Shown here: positions 22,383 through 48,900 of the stretch, piece after piece
How positions within the stretch are numbered: the first letter of the stretch is position 1
How the letters are laid out: each line of letters opens with the position of its first letter
NCBI GenBank assembly: GCA_020056225.1
Contig: JAGVIE010000020.1
Location: forward strand, 6,331-70,330
Direction of reading: 5' to 3'
DNA length: 64,000 nt
From: Bacteroidota bacterium
GTDB taxonomy: Bacteria > Bacteroidota > Ignavibacteria > UBA10030 > SZUA-254
Notes under the pieces: generated by a model
The model's input: only the letters and a program-made list of their open reading frames with translations
What the model was told of the DNA's origin: nothing
The model's database searches: none
Made by a program: the position numbers and the translations under genes

Positions 22383-23258
22383 CTACCATCTTTTCTCCCT
22401 CGCTCTGAAGAAATTCATCAGCGGGTTGATGTAAGATTGATCGATACGAATATCGATTCCGTCCACACCGCTGCGGCGAAATAGTTTGGTTCGTTCTTCC
22501 TGACGATCACTCCACCATCTTTCATATCTCTGAATAACCCTGCGATCGGATGTATCTACCCAGACCGGCTCACCGGTCTCAGCATCAACAACCCGCATCA
22601 ATCCAACGCGCGGCATATTTGATTCACGAGGATCAAACAGTCTGACGCCGATAAGATCATGTTTGCGCGCGGCAATTTTGAGCGCGTCGTTATATCCTTC
22701 ATCAATAAAATCTGAAATTAAGAAGGCGATGCTTCTTTTCTTGATTGCGCTTGTTAAGTACCGTAATCCCTCGGAGATTTTTGTGCCTCGATGAGCGGGC
22801 TGAAAATCAAGAAGCTCCCGTACAATCCTCAGTATATGCGTTCTGCCTTTTTTAGGCGGAATAAATTTTTCTATTACATCACTGAAGAAAATTACTCCAA
22901 CCTTATCGTTGTTTTGAAGCGCGGAGAATGCAAGCACTGCACAAAGCTCTGCGGCGATATCTTTCTTCATTTGATGAACAGTTCCAAACTCACCCGAGCC
23001 GCTGACATCGACCACAAGCATAACCGTTAGCTCGCGCTCTTCCTCGTATATCTTCACATAAGGATGATTGAAACGAGCCGACACGTTCCAGTCGATAGTG
23101 CGTATATCATCACCGAACTGATACTCGCGAACCTCGCTGAACGACATACCTCTCCCTTTGAATACACTACGGTATTCACCTGAAAAGATTTGGTTCACCA
23201 AACCTTTTGTTCGGATCTCGATCTTTCGGACTTTCTTTATTAATTCAGTTGTATCCAT
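22383..23258 (-). CDS. DUF58 domain protein (MoxR-associated vWA-like)
   Basis: 291 aa reading ...GEYRSVFKGRGMSFSEVREYQFGDDIRTIDWNVSAR...VVDVSGS... This is the DUF58 signature. It lies immediately downstream of moxR. Confidence 0.85.
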   Translation of the reverse strand: MDTTELIKKVRKIEIRTKGLVNQIFSGEYRSVFKGRGMSFSEVREYQFGDDIRTIDWNVSARFNHPYVKIYEEERELTVMLVVDVSGSGEFGTVHQMKKDIAAELCAVLAFSALQNNDKVGVIFFSDVIEKFIPPKKGRTHILRIVRELLDFQPAHRGTKISEGLRYLTSAIKKRSIAFLISDFIDEGYNDALKIAARKHDLIGVRLFDPRESNMPRVGLMRVVDAETGEPVWVDTSDRRVIQRYERWWSDRQEERTKLFRRSGVDGIDIRIDQSYINPLMNFFRAREKRW

Positions 23259-23263
23259 GAAGA

Positions 23264-24250
23264 CTAAGGAACTTCGATAGTGTTTAATATATCATCCACA
23301 ATATTTTCCGATGTTACATTTTCTGCTTCGGCTTCGTATGTAACCGCGATACGATGACGGAGAACATCGTGACAAACCGCGCGGACATCTTCAGGTATAA
23401 CATATCCACGCCGCTTGATGAAGGCAAATGCTTTCGCGCCAAGCGCAAGGTTGATGCTCGCACGCGGCGACGCACCGTAGCTGATAAGATTGGTAAGCTT
23501 TTCTAATTTGAAATCTTTAGGTTTCCTTGTTGCGAAAACGATATCGAGTATGTACCGTTCGATTTTCTCGTCCATATATACTTCCTGAACAACAGAACGT
23601 GCTTTCAGAATGTCGGCAGGATTCACAACTGATTTTACCTGCGGTTGTGTATCTGCAATATTCTGGCGCATGATTAACCGCTCTTCGTCACGATTCGGAT
23701 AATCGATTTTAATTTTCAGCATGAAGCGATCTACCTGCGCTTCGGGGAGCGGGTATGTTCCTTCCTGTTCAATCGGGTTCTGAGTTGCGAGCACGAGGAA
23801 CGGCTCATCAAGCTTGAATGTGTTCTCGCCAATTGTTATCTGCCGTTCTTGCATCGCTTCGAGCAATGCGCTTTGCACTTTTGCAGGCGCGCGGTTTATT
23901 TCATCCGCCAGAATAAAGTTTGCAAAGATAGGACCCTTGCGAACCGTAAACTCGGCATTCTTCTGGTTGAAGATCATCGTTCCAATCACGTCAGCAGGAA
24001 GAAGGTCGGGAGTAAATTGGATGCGCTGGAATTTGGCTTGGATTGATGCCGCAAGTGTTTTGATGGAGAGTGTTTTCGCAAGTCCCGGTACACCTTCCAA
24101 TAGTACGTGACCGTTGGATAGAAGCCCGATTAGCAGCCGCTCGACCATATATTTTTGTCCGATAATTACTTTGCCGACTTCCATTTGCAGTATATCGACG
24201 AAGGCGCTTTCGCGCTGAATTTTTTCGTTGAGTAATTTAATGTCTGTCAT
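23264..24250 (-). CDS. moxR: MoxR-family AAA+ ATPase
   Basis: 328 aa. Walker A is LLEGVPGLAKT and Walker B is FILADEINRAPAKVQSALLEAMQE, the MoxR signature. It is the first gene of the bat operon. Confidence 0.9.
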   Translation of the reverse strand: MTDIKLLNEKIQRESAFVDILQMEVGKVIIGQKYMVERLLIGLLSNGHVLLEGVPGLAKTLSIKTLAASIQAKFQRIQFTPDLLPADVIGTMIFNQKNAEFTVRKGPIFANFILADEINRAPAKVQSALLEAMQERQITIGENTFKLDEPFLVLATQNPIEQEGTYPLPEAQVDRFMLKIKIDYPNRDEERLIMRQNIADTQPQVKSVVNPADILKARSVVQEVYMDEKIERYILDIVFATRKPKDFKLEKLTNLISYGASPRASINLALGAKAFAFIKRRGYVIPEDVRAVCHDVLRHRIAVTYEAEAENVTSENIVDDILNTIEVP

Positions 24251-24563: not shown

Positions 24564-25451
24564 ATGAAGTTGAAATATTTGAAACGGTTTTTGATGACTT
24601 TAACATTTCTTAGTGGCATAGTATCCGCACAAAACAGTGTAGAATTTTGGATTACTGTAAAGGACGGTGCTAATTCTACAGATTCTGCAAAGTTGTACTT
24701 CGGTAATCACATCGCAGCAACGTACGGTATCGATAGTTTAAATTCTACAATCAAGGAAAAACAAGGACCACCACCGGGACCGGGGTTTGATGCGCGTTGG
24801 GTAAGCATTCCGGGAAGAGTGAATACTTGGGGACTCGGTTTGATAACGTATGACTTCAGATACGTGCAATATCCTTCGATAGACACATTCGCACTTAAAT
24901 TTCAAAATATGGAACATCCTGAGGCGGACTTCACATTCCAGTGGCCCGATAGATGTTATTTATATTATCGATGTGACAGCATGGTCATTGTTGAATCTTC
25001 CGGCAAGATACCAAAAGTAAATATGTTCGACCAATCAAGCTTGGTGATTCCCACCGCAGGGGATTCTGGAATAAATAAAATATTCATCTATAAATATGGA
25101 ATGTATCTCGAAGGCTGGGGGGATTGTGCCGTAAGTGTTCAGAATAATGCATTAGAAATTCCACCAGAATTCTCTCTGCATCAAAATTATCCTAACCCAT
25201 TTAACCCTGCTACAACAATTTCATTTGATTTACAAAGACGCTCGGTTGTATCTTTAACCGTTTATGATGTACTCGGACAGGAAGTCAGTCGAGTAATAGA
25301 GAATCAAACGATCGATGCAGGAGTACACGAGGTTAAGTTTGATTCGAGAATTCCGCCAAGCGGCGTTTACTTCTACCGCCTTACTACTCACGATACTGAA
25401 TCCGGGCAAATGATTTCCCAAGCCGTAAAGAAAATGATTATACTGCAATAA
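24564..25451 (+). CDS. Secreted protein of unknown function with T9SS C-terminal sorting domain (cargo paralog 1)
   Basis: 295 aa with a signal peptide MKLKYLKRFLMTLTFLSGIVSAQ. The C-terminus is LHQNYPNPFNPATTISFDL...LTVYDVLGQEV...SGVYFYRL...KKMIILQ, a type-A Por secretion C-terminal domain. Confidence 0.7.
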   Translation: MKLKYLKRFLMTLTFLSGIVSAQNSVEFWITVKDGANSTDSAKLYFGNHIAATYGIDSLNSTIKEKQGPPPGPGFDARWVSIPGRVNTWGLGLITYDFRYVQYPSIDTFALKFQNMEHPEADFTFQWPDRCYLYYRCDSMVIVESSGKIPKVNMFDQSSLVIPTAGDSGINKIFIYKYGMYLEGWGDCAVSVQNNALEIPPEFSLHQNYPNPFNPATTISFDLQRRSVVSLTVYDVLGQEVSRVIENQTIDAGVHEVKFDSRIPPSGVYFYRLTTHDTESGQMISQAVKKMIILQ

Positions 25452-25466
25452 GGAGGTAAATTAATC

Positions 25467-26342
25467 ATGAATATCCGATTTTATCATCGACTATGGTTGG
25501 TACTCACCACTATTATACTAAGCGTATCTACTGTGCAAGCACAAATGTCATCTGAGTTTTGGATAAACGTGAAGGATGACATCGATGCTTACAATAACTT
25601 TACTATGTTCTTTGGAAATCATATCAACGCCACATATGGAATTGATAGTTTGAATAGTACGATTCAAGAATGTAGATGTGTCCCCCTTTCAGACTTTATG
25701 GTGTTCTGGACAAACATTCCGGGAAGAGTAAACACATGGAATGTTGGTTTGTTTATGTATGATTTTCGAGGAATCCCGACAAACATTTCTAAGCAGGATA
25801 CTTTTGTATTATCATTTTTTAATTATTTTGACACAGCCGATTTCACAATTCGGTGGCCCAAACGTGAATATCTTGCTCAACGCTGTGACAGTATGTTCCT
25901 TGTTGATCCGACGGGCCAGATTCCGAAGATAAATATGTTTGATATTGACAGCCTTTTGATTCAGGATGCCTTAATCAAAAGCATCTACAAACTTCGCATT
26001 TATAAATACGGCTGCAATATCATTGACGCGGTACAATCAGAATTCTCATTTATACCAACCGATTTCTCGCTTCACCAAAACTATCCCAACCCGTTCAACC
26101 CTACAACAACGATTGAATATCAACTATCTTTTACCAGCCGAGTGATAATAAAAGTTTACAACCTGCTGGGACAAAACATATCAACTTTGACTGATGAGAT
26201 TCAACAAGCCGGATTCAAGTCGGTAACTTGGAATGCGAATGATGCAGCAAGCGGAGTATATTTCTACAAGTTAGAAGCGGTGAGTGTATCCGATCCATTC
26301 AAATCCTTTACGCAAATGAAGAAGATGGTGCTGGTGAGATAA
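25467..26342 (+). CDS. Secreted protein of unknown function with T9SS C-terminal sorting domain (cargo paralog 2)
   Basis: 291 aa. It shares EFWI.VKD, FGNHI.ATYGIDSLNSTI.E, IPGRVNTW, RCDSM, IPK.NMFD and IYKYG with the upstream gene. It ends LHQNYPNPFNPTTTIEY...KVYNLLGQNI...SGVYFYKL...KKMVLVR. Confidence 0.7.
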   Translation: MNIRFYHRLWLVLTTIILSVSTVQAQMSSEFWINVKDDIDAYNNFTMFFGNHINATYGIDSLNSTIQECRCVPLSDFMVFWTNIPGRVNTWNVGLFMYDFRGIPTNISKQDTFVLSFFNYFDTADFTIRWPKREYLAQRCDSMFLVDPTGQIPKINMFDIDSLLIQDALIKSIYKLRIYKYGCNIIDAVQSEFSFIPTDFSLHQNYPNPFNPTTTIEYQLSFTSRVIIKVYNLLGQNISTLTDEIQQAGFKSVTWNANDAASGVYFYKLEAVSVSDPFKSFTQMKKMVLVR

Positions 26343-26354
26343 CCTTGGCACTGT

Positions 26355-26480
26355 GAGGGAATCCCACTATCTATGGTTTCCTATGTTCTGGATTCCCATT
26401 AAGAGCATGTGGGAATGACAAAAAGAGAACATGTCATTCCCGAATGTTTCTATCGGGAATCCAAAACCCTGCTTATTCCC
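26355..26480. repeat. Cluster of GGGAAT/ATTCCC-containing palindromic hairpins downstream of the GIY-YIG gene
   Basis: One hairpin is gggaatcc(26357)...ggattccc(26391-26398). A perfect 10-bp stem is gggaatgaca(26411-26420)-11 nt-tgtcattccc(26432-26441). A third is gggaat(26455-26460)...attccc(26475-26480). Confidence 0.7.
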
Positions 26481-26790
26481 TCTGCAATAGTATAATGTCT
26501 CCATCATTATATAGGTCTTGCCACTGTGGATTGTACTTTTCGATCAAATTTATTTTCCATGATCTATTCCACTTTTTCATCTGCTTCTCACGTTGAATCG
26601 CACTAAGAATATTTCCATGCTCTTCATAGTAAACAAGCATAGAAACATTGTACTTTTGAGTGAAACCTTTTACTAATTTTTCTTTATGCTCGTATATCCT
26701 ACATACAAGGTCGTTTGTTACACCGATATATAAGGTTCCATTCCTTTTGCTTGCTAATATGTAAACAAAATATATTTTATCTTCATACAT
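26473..26790 (-). CDS. GIY-YIG nuclease family protein (UPF0213-like)
   Basis: 105 aa reading IYFVYILASKRNGTLYIGVTNDLVCRIYEHK, the GIY-YIG motif with a conserved Arg and Glu. It is flanked by GGGAAT-containing palindromes. Confidence 0.85.
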   Translation of the reverse strand: MYEDKIYFVYILASKRNGTLYIGVTNDLVCRIYEHKEKLVKGFTQKYNVSMLVYYEEHGNILSAIQREKQMKKWNRSWKINLIEKYNPQWQDLYNDGDIILLQRE

Positions 26791-26851
26791 TTAAGTTTCC
26801 AATATCATGTCTGCTTGTTTTTAGCAAGTAATCATTCTATAGCTATATTCT

Positions 26852-26877
26852 GGATTCCCGCTTTCGCGGGAATGACA
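26852..26877. repeat. GGGAAT palindrome (attcccgc-tttc-gcgggaat) plus a second copy of GGGAATGACA, upstream of the GIY-YIG gene and immediately after the argS stop
   Basis: 26854-26861 attcccgc and 26866-26873 gcgggaat form a perfect 8-bp stem with a 4-nt loop. 26868-26877 gggaatgaca is a direct repeat of 26411-26420. Confidence 0.65.
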
Positions 26878-26885
26878 TTAATATC

Positions 26886-28517
26886 CTACATCTTCTCCGG
26901 CGCGTTGATGCCAAGAATTGCAAATCCGTTGGCAAGTACTGTCTTTGTAGCAAGACAAAGTGCAATCCGAGCCGCAGTCATATTTAAATCATCTCCCACA
27001 ACCCGATGCTCGTGGTAAAACTTGTGATAACTACCTGCAACATCGTGCAAATATTCCGCAAGCCGGTGCGGCTCATATGTTGCGGCGCATGATTCAACCA
27101 TATCCGGGAATTGCGACAGGAGTTTCATCAAAGAAATCTCTTCAGGCTGATTCAACAGCGATAAATCGTACGACTTGCTTAAATCAACTCCCTTGCTTTC
27201 TGCAAGCCGGATGATGCTCGCTATACGGGCGTGGGCATATTGAAGGTAATAAACAGGATTTTCTTCCGATTGTTCCTTCGCAAGCTTGAGATCGAAATTC
27301 AAATGACTTCCAATCCCGCGCATCAGAAAAAAGTATCTCACAACATCAGCGCCCACTTCATCAATCAACTCATCGAGAGTGATGAAGTTCGCCTTACGCG
27401 TCGACATCTTAACAACCTCACCCTCCTGCAAGATTGTAACAAACTGATGAATCGGAACTTTTATTTTAGATTCATCGTAACCGAGCGCCTTAATTCCCGC
27501 AAGTACATCAGGATAAGTAGCAACATGATCTGCACCAAGCACGTCTATAATAAGTTCGAATCCGCGTCTGAGTTTATCGCGGTGATATGCAATGTCTGGT
27601 AACCGATAGGTCGGCTCACCGGTTGCTTTTACTATAACTTTATCTTTCTCACCGCCGAAAGCAGTTGCCTTAAACCATACTGCCCCATCTTGGTCATATG
27701 CTAAATCCCTTTTCCGTAATTCTTCAATAACTTCTTTCACCTGTCCGGTTTCGTAAAGTGTGTTCTCATTAAAGAAAACATCGTGCTTCACACCAATCCT
27801 TGCCAAGGTTTTTTTGATATCATCAAATATTTCCGTCTCGGCTTGCTGTTTGAATTTACCTTCGGTTGGCTCGTCTTTCAAATTTTTTCCATGACTATCA
27901 ATAAGATGTTGCGCAATCTCTTTGATATACTCGCCCTGATAATAATCTTCGGGAAAATCAATCTTCTCACCTATCAATTCGAGATAGCGCAATCGAACCG
28001 AGTCGCCCAAAACGCGCATCTGCCTGCCTGCGTTGTTGAAGTAATACTCGCGCGTAACATCGTATCCGGTCCATTCGAGGAGCCGAGCAACCGTATCGCC
28101 GTACACCGCGCCGCGTCCGTGACCGACGGTAAGAGGTCCTGTAGGATTCGCGCTTACGAATTCAACTTGCGTCTTTAAGTGTTTGCCGACATTTGCTTTG
28201 CCGAATTGCTTTCCTTCATTGATAATATCCGCAAGCCGACTGTGATAAAATTTATTCGTAAAATGAAAATTGATAAACCCCGGACCGGCAATTTCTATCT
28301 TGTCGACAAGCGCATTATCCAGAATTAATTTCTCCAAAATCTGCTCTGCAAACCGGCGCGGGTTAAGTTTCAATTGTTTTGCAACGGTCATCGCGATATT
28401 GGTTGTCAGATCGCCATGCGTTTCTATGCGGGGTTTTTCAAATACAGGTGAAATAGTCTCGGGGACTCCCAGTATTTTAAGAATGGGGAGTAATTGTTCT
28501 TTTAGGTAGTGCTTCAC
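26886..28517 (-). CDS. argS: Arginine--tRNA ligase
   Basis: 543 aa. It has the N-terminal Arg_tRNA_synt_N region and class I HIGH-like ANPTGPLTVGHGRG. The catalytic core and DALR anticodon-binding C-terminus (...YLQYAHARIASI...) are present. Confidence 0.93.
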   Translation of the reverse strand: MKHYLKEQLLPILKILGVPETISPVFEKPRIETHGDLTTNIAMTVAKQLKLNPRRFAEQILEKLILDNALVDKIEIAGPGFINFHFTNKFYHSRLADIINEGKQFGKANVGKHLKTQVEFVSANPTGPLTVGHGRGAVYGDTVARLLEWTGYDVTREYYFNNAGRQMRVLGDSVRLRYLELIGEKIDFPEDYYQGEYIKEIAQHLIDSHGKNLKDEPTEGKFKQQAETEIFDDIKKTLARIGVKHDVFFNENTLYETGQVKEVIEELRKRDLAYDQDGAVWFKATAFGGEKDKVIVKATGEPTYRLPDIAYHRDKLRRGFELIIDVLGADHVATYPDVLAGIKALGYDESKIKVPIHQFVTILQEGEVVKMSTRKANFITLDELIDEVGADVVRYFFLMRGIGSHLNFDLKLAKEQSEENPVYYLQYAHARIASIIRLAESKGVDLSKSYDLSLLNQPEEISLMKLLSQFPDMVESCAATYEPHRLAEYLHDVAGSYHKFYHEHRVVGDDLNMTAARIALCLATKTVLANGFAILGINAPEKM

Positions 28518-45900: not shown

Positions 45901-48900
45901 TTCATCGATTTATAATTGAAGATATCGAGCGGTCGAGTAATAAAACGTTTTACAACCTCACGTGAGGTATCCTTCGGCAGACCGTTGAGAATAAGCGCCA
46001 ATGATTGCTCATTCGCTTCGATAATTTGATTCGGATCGGAACGGTCTTTTTCACGCGCGATTCCCAACGCATCCCAATCCTCAGAGTATTGTGGATTATC
46101 TTCAATATTAACTACCGAGACTTTCATAACTGAATCGCTTTTTATCCGTTCCTCCCATTGATTGCCAACGAGATTAAGCTCGGCAACGCGAATACTTACC
46201 GGTTGAGAAAATCCTGAAAGCCATAATCTTATATACTGGACATCCTCCAACACAGTCGATGCATCGATACCACCGAATACTCTGGTCGCCTCGAGCAGGG
46301 GAATCCGATATTGATACCATCCATTCTCACCACCGCCTACGATATAAGTTGAATCGATCAGCGGTATTTCATATTCGAGATACAGCTCACTGCGGTCTAT
46401 ATTGCCGTTGCCGTTTAAATCCTCCGTATTCGGGAAAAGACCGGCTGGGTCTTGTCTGTTCTGATCGGTCCCATTGAACTTTGTAAGATGTATTCCGTCG
46501 CCGTATGCTGTCCAGTTATCTCCACCGGGATCATTTGGATCTACGTCCGGGTCACTGCTGTTAGATGCGAGAAAGGCGGCATGGATAATCTTTTCCTGAT
46601 TATCATCGAACATATCTACGCCTGCATCTTCACCTTCATTCAGGACGCCATTCGGTATCCCACCCGGATTGATTTCAGTGTGAATGATATCCTCTGAATT
46701 CAAATTTCCGTCGGGTATTACGTCTTCGCTTATCCTGCCGAGGTCGATGTGCATTCTCCCTTTATTTAAATCATTGAGGTCATCGCTCGACGCTTTCATC
46801 CATATTTCAATGTACGCGATATTCTGACTGAGGACATTTCCTGCCATCGACCCGATGTAGCGCATGATACCACCCCAGTTTTCTCTGCGAGCGTCCGGGT
46901 TATTATATTTACCGGTTCCGCCGCCTATCTCCTGCCGATTTAATGTTGAATCGAGATCGGGGGAAAAATTATAGGTGCCGCGATGATTCGGATCGAAATC
47001 AAGATTCAATACGGTAACCTGATTTTGTCCCGCACGCGTTCTTCGGTTGGGCCATATATCAGAGGTTGTAACATCGGTTGGTAAGCGATTGTACCATGAC
47101 AATCTGGATCTTTTATAACTTATCACCGAATCAGGAACCAGTTGGTTCGCTATCGAATCCATTGGCGTACTTGACATCGACCATGCTGCATATGTGATTG
47201 GAAATGGAATCGTGCGGCGGATTCCCTCAAAATCGTCGACATAGGCGATGCTCGCTCCATGATCGCTCAACACTGCGCTTTTCTTCGTGTTAGGGTCGGG
47301 AATCATGTAAGCGCCTTCCCCGTTGATTCGCCATGTAGACATTTCTTTTGTTCTAATCAGGGGCAGTGCGTCAATTGCATCGGTGAGAAACGGAAGATTT
47401 GCGCTCGTTGAAAAATCCATCCCGAGCATCATGTTGTTCGTAGGTTCCTCTCCTATCCTGACTTTATCACTCAGTGTTTGCTGGTTTAAATTCATGATTG
47501 TAAACCCGAGTTTAGTATTCGGGAAAGCGTCTAACTCTCCGCGAGCGCCGATCAATGTTTTCGAGGCAAGCTGAAACAGATCGTTCTGCTCGTATTTGAT
47601 CTGAAGATTCGCTCCCGGAACAAGTGCTTCGGGCCTGCGGATAACAACCTGACCGATAATATAGTCAATAGTATAATCGACATTAGGTGTCAACGGACTG
47701 CCGTTCAATAACACATGCACGCTTCCTTCTACAAGATTCATTGAACCCAAAGTAAAAGTGCTCGTTGTGCCTCCTGCGGCTACGACTTTGATAATATATT
47801 TATTACGATCTGAGTTCTGGGCGGCTGACATAGTTGTATCATAAATATCTCCAAACAACAAAGAATCGCCCGCAGTTTTATTGTTACTCCTGAAATACTG
47901 TGTGATCGTCGAGTCAAAGGGCCTTAGTGTGGGGAAAATAACCTCGCCACGCTCAACATCAATAGTCAACCCGGGAATGAAATCGAAAAAATTATCCGGT
48001 GTAGGTGAATTAAACTGGTTAAACCGATCAAGCCCGAGGACCGATAATAAATTTAGTCCTTCGATATTATCCTCGTCTGCTCCCACTGTTGCACGTCTCC
48101 ATATATTAAGTATAAAACCATCTTTCTTGAGATTCTGTATCCCGAGGGAATAAAAATTCTTCAATAATAAATTCCAGGCATGCGTGTAACCCGGTCTTAG
48201 AGATAGCGGCTTGATTAATTTTAAATATGTCAGTGTATCATTTCCCGCAATGGTGCCACCAAATACTTTATTTACATTGTTCTCTCCTGCAATAGTATAA
48301 GAGACAGCAATTACCTGATTATCGGAAGGAGCCGAATTAAGTGTTATATAACCGCCATATGTATCGAATTTATAATCTTTATTCGGGATAAGGCGGACAA
48401 AAATCCCTGCCTCGTATCTGCCAGATTGCTTGCTGAGCGTCTCAATCTGTTCGGAAGAGTAGTTCTCATTAACATTGATAGAAGGCAGATCGATATATGC
48501 TCTGCCTGTTTTATAATTACCCTGAGTATATGTTTGACTGCTTGTAGATACATTCGTCGCATAAACATCTAACTGTAATATCTGATTCGCCTCAATATCA
48601 GGAGTTAGAATCCGCACCTGTGATTCTTGCAGTTTAGCAAAATACTTCGCGTAAACCGTATCAAGGAAGAAATGGTTCTTGGTGTAATCATGTGCTTGAA
48701 TTGTTCTTTCGATGGTCGTTGAGCCGCCCGATATTGTCAGTTCTTTTGTCTGTCCCTTCTTCTGCGATAACAAAGTTGTCAGCGTCAGCGGACCGGCTTG
48801 CAGTTTCGCTTTAATGCCGAATAATGCCTGCCCGCCTCCAACCAGCGAAGGTGTTTGAAGTGAAACGTTTCCGGCTTCGATACTCTGAATTATTTCGTCA

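Follow-up and report, generated by a model that had tools for sequence, protein, structure and literature searches.

Small GIY-YIG nucleases whose genes lie next to their own hairpin recognition sites were described in 2025 as the Ssn/SRM system (Chenal et al. 2025, Nat Commun 16:2388, PMC11893778). In that study, a 28-nt sequence named NTS (CGTCATTCCCGCGMAVGCGGGAATCYRG) and a degenerate Ssn-related motif (SRM), HGTCWYN(0-2)YYVSBRHN(0-5)WNVSBRGN(0-2)RNCYNB, were defined, and an SRM was reported nearby for 71% of the ssnA homologues and on both sides for 42% (PMC11893778). Here, a 64-kb stretch of contig JAGVIE010000020.1 (positions 6,331 to 70,330, hereafter the window) from an uncultured Ignavibacteriales bacterium was analysed, in which a short GIY-YIG gene, accompanied by palindromes, lies downstream of argS. 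Judging from sequence comparisons, this locus is very probably an NTS-ssnA-NTS unit of the Ssn family. Gene and hairpins belong together as one unit, an observation that is real, though not new: since the link between gene and hairpin was already found and characterised biochemically in 2025, the locus adds one Ssn/SRM pair, from the Ignavibacteriales, and not a new system.

The SsnA of Neisseria meningitidis has 94 aa and belongs to cd10448 (GIY-YIG_unchar_3); it binds the NTS only as single-stranded DNA (ssDNA), and only one of its strands, and cuts a few nucleotides 5' of it, being inactive on double-stranded DNA (dsDNA) or RNA and not binding the RNA form (PMC11893778). Cutting is abolished by the substitutions Y6A, Y17A and E64A. 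Both cleavage and binding depend critically on the GTC flank at the 5' side and the C at the 3' side of the palindrome, and the identity of the loop, even its presence, is dispensable (PMC11893778). Three further homologues cut their own repeats, giving four with activity biochemically shown, and in Neisseria SsnA lowers the transformation by NTS-containing DNA (PMC11893778). The authors also noted that the NTS-ssnA-NTS layout resembles an insertion sequence (IS) and is analogous to the repetitive extragenic palindromes (REP) and their associated tyrosine transposases (RAYT), and they did not require multi-copy repeats for membership (PMC11893778). The window had been read before from its letters alone, and the proposal made in that reading (the original prediction), that the hairpins might be recognition sites of the nuclease, is borne out by the biochemistry of these four homologues. 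The core idea, a nuclease gene amid its own hairpin recognition sites, is right as far as the sequence can tell, and it re-discovers the 2025 system.

The central features of the locus, in window coordinates, are the following.

26473 to 26790, minus strand: ssnA homologue, a single-domain GIY-YIG nuclease of 105 aa (Pfam PF01541, E=4.8e-17)
26850 to 26877, minus strand: SRM/NTS unit C, which reads TGTCATTCCCGCGAAAGCGGGAATCCAG on the gene strand, in the canonical upstream orientation
26432 to 26463, plus strand: SRM-like unit B with a long loop, plus strand TGTCATTCCCG-aatgtttctat-CGGGAATCCA, in the canonical downstream orientation
26389 to 26420, minus strand: SRM-like unit A with a long loop, plus strand TGGATTCCCA-ttaagagcatg-TGGGAATGACA, a direct repeat of C that stands tail-to-tail with B
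26421 to 26431, no strand: 11-nt spacer between units A and B, the apex of an alternative long hairpin of 88 nt

The 105-aa open reading frame (ORF) of the original prediction is confirmed, on the minus strand, and its Pfam GIY-YIG domain spans residues 7-81. By Pfam scan and ORF context, the protein has no further domain, DNA-binding or other, and its gene shows no sign of an intron or intein around it. As a proxy for the meningococcal SsnA, the orthologue of N. gonorrhoeae was used (94 aa, L065:1989-2273), to which the window protein is 66% identical over 88 aa (BLASTP, E=2e-44), which places it, via this proxy, within the homology limit of E<1e-10 that the paper sets for Ssn membership. Residues Y10, Y21 and E68 align with the catalytic Y6, Y17 and E64 of the meningococcal SsnA and are invariant across an alignment of 31 sequences (A1), and the AlphaFold model (pLDDT 92.4) is one compact domain with a GIY-YIG fold. 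The ORF would then encode a single-domain GIY-YIG endonuclease orthologous to the Neisseria SsnA. It is present as a single copy, no second ssnA-like gene being found in the 64-kb window, and its homologues number in the thousands, at 60-75% identity, across very distant phyla.

Alternatively, the gene might encode a free-standing GIY-YIG homing endonuclease or a housekeeping nuclease of the UPF0213/YhbQ type, with the palindromes being unrelated local sequence, an explanation that we consider hardly credible. It would agree with the presence of the Pfam GIY-YIG domain, with a sub-threshold match to an NCBIfam group I intron endonuclease (19.4 bits versus a cut-off of 56) and with the best fold match in the PDB, the UPF0213 protein BH0048. 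The nearest folds found by Foldseek are this protein (1zg2), 1ywl and the GIY-YIG domain of Slx1 (7cq2, 6seh, 4xlg), at probabilities of 0.98-1.00 and identities of 20-27%. However, the similarity to 1zg2 is at the level of the fold (22% identity, E=1.4e-3, template modelling score about 0.5) and compares with 66% identity to SsnA, and the UPF0213 label used in the original prediction is probably off. The lack of a DNA-binding domain and of an intron or intein context also speaks against this explanation, as does the fact that the palindromes are far above chance and recur with the nuclease gene in 67 of 80 loci. Neither the sequence search nor the fold search of the PDB yielded an Ssn structure, and PADLOC and NCBIfam searches returned no family for the window protein.

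Some further observations concern the protein and its relatives. A phmmer search of the PDB retrieved WD40 proteins (E down to 2e-11), which were rejected as spurious, the score being summed from a dozen sub-threshold repeats; the false positive arises from the resemblance between KTVKLWNRNGQ and KQMKKWNRSWK and is a trap for this protein family. At its C-terminus, the window protein has an extension, NDGDIILLQRE (residues 95-105, window 26473-26505), which is missing from the 94-aa Neisseria protein, is common to a subclade of the homologues (..GEILPLPxE) and takes the shape of a small beta-hairpin in the model. In three homologues of alignment A1 (P0048, P0077 and P0115), N-terminal extensions correspond to the translated upstream hairpin (e.g., MSFPRKRES.. 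and ..VIPANEGIQ...), and these are probably mis-called start codons.

The repeat unit proper is an oriented hairpin, TGG-[ATTCCCn / loop / nGGGAAT]-GACA, of which the window has three intact copies, all at this locus. Their TGGAT..ATGACA strand is the plus strand in A (26389-26420) and C (26850-26877) and the minus strand in B (26432-26463). Repeats are thus found on both sides of ssnA, C upstream, its NTS strand being that of the gene, and B downstream in the inverse orientation, with B counting as a flanking repeat under a structural definition of the unit and not under the published regular expression. All three units retain GTC on the 5' side and C on the 3' side of the palindrome, the flanking bases on which the meningococcal enzyme depends. 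Unit C begins 8 nt past the argS stop and ends 59 nt ahead of the ssnA start. It matches the published degenerate SRM motif, for which a shuffled window gives 0.1 matches, as well as 27 of the 28 positions of the NTS consensus; its ssDNA hairpin has a predicted energy of -10.3 kcal/mol (z=-5.0), and the unit is identical in the relatives L001, L090 and L092. Unit B, which on the gene strand reads TGGAT..ATGACA, begins 9 nt past the ssnA stop. Units A and C share a 5' extension of 17 nt, CTATrTTCTGGATTCCC.

These repeats are well above what is expected from composition. The 10-mer GGGAATGACA occurs at 26411 (plus), 26432 (minus) and 26868 (plus), three matches against 0.10 expected and a number reached in 0 of 100 shuffles, and GGATTCCC-N(4-20)-GGGAATG has three copies in the window against 0.01 expected. 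The direct repeat of the 10-mer at 26411 and 26868, 457 bp apart, was correctly recorded in the original prediction, and the two palindromes it listed, attcccgc-tttc-gcgggaat (26854-26873) and gggaatgaca-N11-tgtcattccc (26411-26441), are both present. Its parsing of the repeat unit, in contrast, was mistaken, and the 10-bp stem with an 11-nt interior is not a functional stem of its own: it is the junction of units A and B. The same reading had taken the cassette to be REP-like or similar to a miniature inverted-repeat transposable element, which by copy number does not stand in the 64-kb scan, where all three intact units sit at the gene. No further hairpin units were found above chance in the 64 kb (a relaxed scan gave 3 extra weak matches versus 4-11 in shuffles), and at 46299 and 47219, where the GGATTCCC octamer recurs, the motif context is missing. 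Apart from the intact units, two remnants were recognised.

26803 to 26838, minus strand: decayed fourth unit, seen in the window/L001 alignment as the relic of a TGGATGCCTGC-taaaaac-GTGCGGGCATGACA unit that is intact in L001
26357 to 26366, plus strand: isolated half-site GGGAATCCCA, conserved in L001

The decayed unit has no stable fold (-1.9 kcal/mol, z=0).

Three points weigh against assigning the whole cassette to the Ssn/SRM system. Firstly, units A and B, with loops of 9-11 nt, fail the published SRM regular expression because their loops exceed the length it allows. Secondly, the A/B pair can form a single long hairpin of 88 nt (-19.5 to -20.7 kcal/mol, z -5.5 to -6.3), which would compete with the two unit hairpins. 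Thirdly, there are just three intact units in the 64 kb, all of them at the gene, and therefore nothing here points to a genome-wide role comparable with that of the NTS in Neisseria, present in hundreds of copies.

To place the locus in a wider context, the alignment of 31 homologues was used for a genome scan, which yielded 80 loci from Omnitrophota, Patescibacteria, Alpha-, Beta-, Gamma- and Deltaproteobacteria, Planctomycetota, Cyanobacteria, Chloroflexota, Spirochaetia, Neisseria and others. One of them (L004) was left out, being on the same contig as L001, and the remaining 79 were searched for units, with GGAT/ATGAC flanks and 7 or more paired stem positions as the sole requirements. 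As a result, 181 hairpin units were obtained, compared with 1.25 in dinucleotide shuffles, and they are about 25-fold denser close to the gene (4.4 per kb within 200 nt) than elsewhere (0.18 per kb). In the usual layout, one unit, reading TGTCAT..ATCCA in the direction of the gene, precedes the start codon by 10-30 nt, and an inverted one follows the stop by 13-50 nt; the canonical inverted pair on both sides is seen in 38 of the 79 loci. The stems vary widely from locus to locus (ATTCCCGC, ATGCCCGC, ATCCCCGC, ATCGTCCGC, ATTGCGGC and others) and the flanks are constant. For the analysis of covariation, 54 distinct units were picked by their flanks alone: 98% of the stem cells are paired, and 54 cells show a double change versus 7.9 in shuffles, a value reached in 0 of 500, with pairing falling to 25-50% in every slid register. 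A chance origin of the hairpins, and of their association with the gene, is excluded. The Neisseria copies among the 79 loci are the classical dRS3 repeat.

It is also conceivable that the hairpins act mainly at the level of RNA or transcription, serving argS, ssnA and the convergent genes on the other side of the cassette as terminators, attenuators or stem-loops that stabilise mRNA, and that the association with the nuclease is incidental, but we regard this as very improbable. In its favour, unit C begins 8 nt past the argS stop and units A and B lie between convergent gene ends; in addition, a related locus without the cassette (L084, see below) has a palindromic, terminator-like hairpin at the same place, and the Francisella small RNA (sRNA) FtrB holds an NTS-like hairpin, which indicates that such units are transcribed. 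However, no terminator-like site with a T-run was found in 26250-27000, and the non-pairing TGG/GAC flanks are invariant and oriented to the nuclease gene across phyla, whatever its neighbours. The meningococcal SsnA, moreover, does not bind the RNA form and needs the flanks on ssDNA (PMC11893778). The role of terminators, which the original prediction had offered as an option, therefore finds no support, considering that a T-tract is missing and that the same oriented flanks surround homologues in unrelated gene contexts; a secondary transcriptional effect of the hairpins is possible. With regard to known RNAs, no Rfam family reaches its gathering score in the window. The only bacterial near-match of a permissive scan is to RF02748 (FtrB) at 26827-26894 on the minus strand, with 23.9 bits against a gathering score of 66, and it is explained by the NTS-like hairpin in FtrB. 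This hairpin is contained in the published FtrB Northern probe GAGATTCCCGCCTACGCGGGAATGACTACCGACG, and the sRNA appears, by its sequence, to include an SRM unit.

Assuming that the locus works as an Ssn/SRM pair, the flanking hairpins would be the cognate SRM/NTS motifs of the window nuclease. In ssDNA, the strand GTC-ATTCCCn...nGGGAAT-CC is predicted to fold into a hairpin, to which the nuclease would bind in a sequence- and orientation-specific manner, then making an Mg2+-dependent cut in that strand, a few nucleotides to the 5' side of the motif, and being inactive on dsDNA, on RNA and on the complementary strand; all of these properties are established for the homologues and presumed for the window protein. 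If the cut position is that of Neisseria, units A and B would each be cut on the 5' side within the 11-nt spacer that separates them, A on one strand and B on the other.

The cassette lies, as had been stated in the original prediction, between argS and a pair of genes with C-terminal sorting domains of the type IX secretion system (T9SS).

26886 to 28517, minus strand: argS (arginine-tRNA ligase; Pfam DALR_1, tRNA-synt_1d, Arg_tRNA_synt_N), the same-strand upstream neighbour of ssnA and the anchor of synteny
25467 to 26342, plus strand: T9SS C-terminal sorting-domain gene (Pfam Por_Secre_tail), the convergent downstream neighbour and one of two tandem paralogues
24564 to 25451, plus strand: second T9SS sorting-domain gene, the tandem paralogue

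This site was compared in close Ignavibacteriales relatives, whose arginyl-tRNA synthetase (ArgRS) is 82-89% identical. The synteny of argS and ssnA is kept in L001, L086, L087, L090 and L092, and the identities of SsnA and ArgRS in the same pairs of genomes are 88.6/88.0, 89.5/88.0, 86.7/85.6 and 94.3/95.4%. Since SsnA identity tracks that of ArgRS, the cassette was probably in the common ancestor and was later lost or replaced in some lineages. The recent insertion implied by the original prediction is thus not borne out. A relative lacking the insertion, which it had suggested looking for, was found: L084 and L085, whose ArgRS is sister to that of L086 (91% identical), have an empty site, with 43 nt between argS and the T9SS gene (L084 5133-5175). 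This gap consists of a near-perfect palindrome of 33 nt (AAATGGACACCATCTT-T-AAGATGGCGTCCATTT) and has neither ssnA nor an SRM. As the palindrome is unrelated to the cassette, the empty site represents a replacement and not a clean excision, and no target-site duplication is recognisable when it is compared with the occupied sites. In L088 and L089, both ssnA and the T9SS gene are missing, and in L086 and L090-L092 the outer units are decayed or partly deleted, L086 also having a duplication of them. From these alignments, the cassette looks like an old chromosomal resident downstream of argS that has co-diverged with it; by the same comparisons, at least one sister lineage has lost it or had it replaced, and its outer units decay, delete, duplicate and invert.

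The neighbourhood is variable in other respects as well. Beside the cassette, the window has 2 copies of the T9SS gene, L084 and L086 have 1, L090 has 3 and L088 and L089 have 0. In L001, about 50 nt of the 3' end of the T9SS gene are kept, followed by an unrelated HSDR_N-like ORF (133 aa) and an ORF of 351 aa. A gene of the 23S_rRNA_IVP family is found in L088 (6714-7106) between a MoxR-like and a DUF58 gene, a pair that is adjacent in the window (23264-24250 and 22383-23258).

The history of the site bears directly on a further explanation, in which the cassette is an active IS-like mobile element, with hairpin-bearing inverted ends that are cut by the encoded nuclease and a unit that moves between sites and genomes. 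We think that this is decidedly unlikely, although several observations would fit it. The gene lies between inverted hairpin ends in 38 of 79 loci, a layout whose IS-like character was noted by the authors of the Ssn study (PMC11893778). The distribution is patchy among close relatives, the argS-T9SS site being empty in L084/L085, sister of the ssnA-positive L086, and the protein identities of 60-75% extend across very distant phyla. However, the same insertion site with homologous flanks in at least five lineages, together with the matching divergence of SsnA and ArgRS, indicates vertical inheritance, and a mobile element would be expected to fit poorly with the lack of a recognisable target-site duplication, with the replacement in L084 and with the single gene copy in 64 kb. 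Among 50,697 phage records there is no match to the gene, whereas it does match 33 plasmid records, 32 of which are non-mobilizable. In the canonical layout, the predicted cuts would also be on opposite strands. GIY-YIG nucleases are not known to have strand-transfer activity, which counts against a mobile element too. Taken together, the history of the argS site and the phage and plasmid records argue against a currently active mobile element, while a mobile origin could lie behind the old resident cassette.

One of the rearrangements at the site is an inversion. The 77-bp module that comprises units A and B is inverted in situ in the window, with both flanks collinear. Comparing window 26389-26463 with L001 4329-4405, L086 5528-5590 and L090 1494-1560, the module is identical to that of L001 at 69 of 79 positions when reverse-complemented and at 50 of 79 when read directly, and the L001 orientation is common to L086, L087 and L090-L092. 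The window lineage is in this respect set apart from four related ones. The breakpoints are in the outer inverted arms, TGGATTCCC/GGGAATCCA.

The long loops of units A and B are not peculiar to the window. Near ssnA homologues from several phyla, 16 units have a 9-nt loop of the type TARAARCAT, and a scan of metagenomes for this class (8-bp stem, TARAARCAT loop) gave at least 120 loci (L093-L212). Among the matches listed, 114 of 125 are paired over the whole 8-bp stem, compensatory variants included, and the matches are mostly intergenic. Four of the 125 share their contig piece with an ssnA homologue, and of the 65 listed matches that have 700 nt or more of sequence to either side, none has ssnA within 1 kb. 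No recurrent gene was found beside these dispersed hairpins among the matches listed, the largest cluster being of 7 out of 120 loci and unrelated. With few matches beside ssnA and no recurrent neighbour, the long-loop hairpins behave as dispersed REP-like copies, which is how SRMs in general have been described (PMC11893778). Their dispersal in metagenomes would also be in line with the mobile element discussed above. The long-loop class escapes the published SRM motif and is common in metagenomes.

It is tempting to go one step further and to propose that the SRM units are substrates of local DNA rearrangement and that the long loops mark a second, previously unrecognised SRM class; this combined proposal is, in our view, unlikely. 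It would draw on the inversion of the A/B module relative to four related lineages, on the predicted 5' cuts that meet in the 11-nt spacer from opposite strands, on the deletions and duplications of units and the replacement of a whole cassette in relatives, and on the dispersed long-loop hairpins with their compensatory stem variants. If it were true that Ssn cleavage drives inversions and indels or the copying of long-loop hairpins, NTS-ssnA-NTS would be the GIY-YIG analogue of REP/RAYT, recombinogenic or mobile. The additions to the published picture are small: the long-loop class, the inversion in situ and the allelic series at the argS site. Still, one site with occupied, decayed, inverted and empty alleles makes a compact data set on the evolution of the cassette, and such a series can address whether the nuclease promotes rearrangements, a question left open by Chenal et al. 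2025 (PMC11893778). The long-loop class is of interest for having been missed by the published search motif despite being common in metagenomes. The locus may also provide a natural enzyme/site pair with two predicted site architectures (a 4-nt loop and loops of 9-11 nt), of use for ssDNA-cutting tools.

Regarding the relationship with other known systems, UPF0213/YhbQ and the Slx1 domain are the nearest solved folds, and Slx1 is likewise specific for DNA structure. Their identity to the window protein is 20-27%, however, UPF0213 has no known association with SRMs, and Slx1 needs its partner Slx4 and a RING domain and acts on branched dsDNA. In outline, the locus resembles REP, or bacterial interspersed mosaic elements (BIME), with RAYT (TnpA-REP, an IS200/IS605-like HUH Y1 protein), in that a small nuclease gene is flanked by extragenic palindromes recognised as ssDNA hairpins, with dispersed genome copies being possible and with mosaic clusters. 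The fold and chemistry of the HUH/Y1 enzymes are, nevertheless, unrelated to GIY-YIG, and for Ssn there is no known covalent intermediate or strand transfer, only endonucleolytic cutting. Since the window gene is a GIY-YIG and not an HUH/Y1 gene, the locus works like REP/RAYT and is not a member of it.

The hairpins themselves are close to the neisserial dRS3 and the Neisseria intergenic mosaic elements (NIME), defined by ATTCCC-N8-GGGAAT. In its core, ATTCCCGCGAAAGCGGGAAT, unit C agrees exactly with dRS3, and relatives such as L086 show mosaic arrays of units with short spacers, as NIME arrays do. In contrast, dRS3 is defined as an unoriented 20-mer and is also a phage integration site in Neisseria, whereas the units of the window have the oriented flanks TGTC/CCAG and their array is confined to the nuclease locus.

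From the Ssn of Neisseria, the locus differs in several ways. The host is an uncultured Ignavibacteriales bacterium, for which no link with natural transformation is known, whereas one is known in Neisseria; there are 3 intact repeats in 64 kb here compared with hundreds per Neisseria genome; two of the three units, with their 9-11-nt loops, are outside the published SRM expression; and the protein has a C-terminal extension of 11 residues (..GDIILLQRE), common to a subclade. What is the same is a single-domain GIY-YIG protein of about 100 aa, with 66% identity to the Neisseria orthologue and the catalytic Y/Y/E, together with an oriented hairpin (27 of 28 positions in unit C) and the inverted layout of NTS, gene and NTS.

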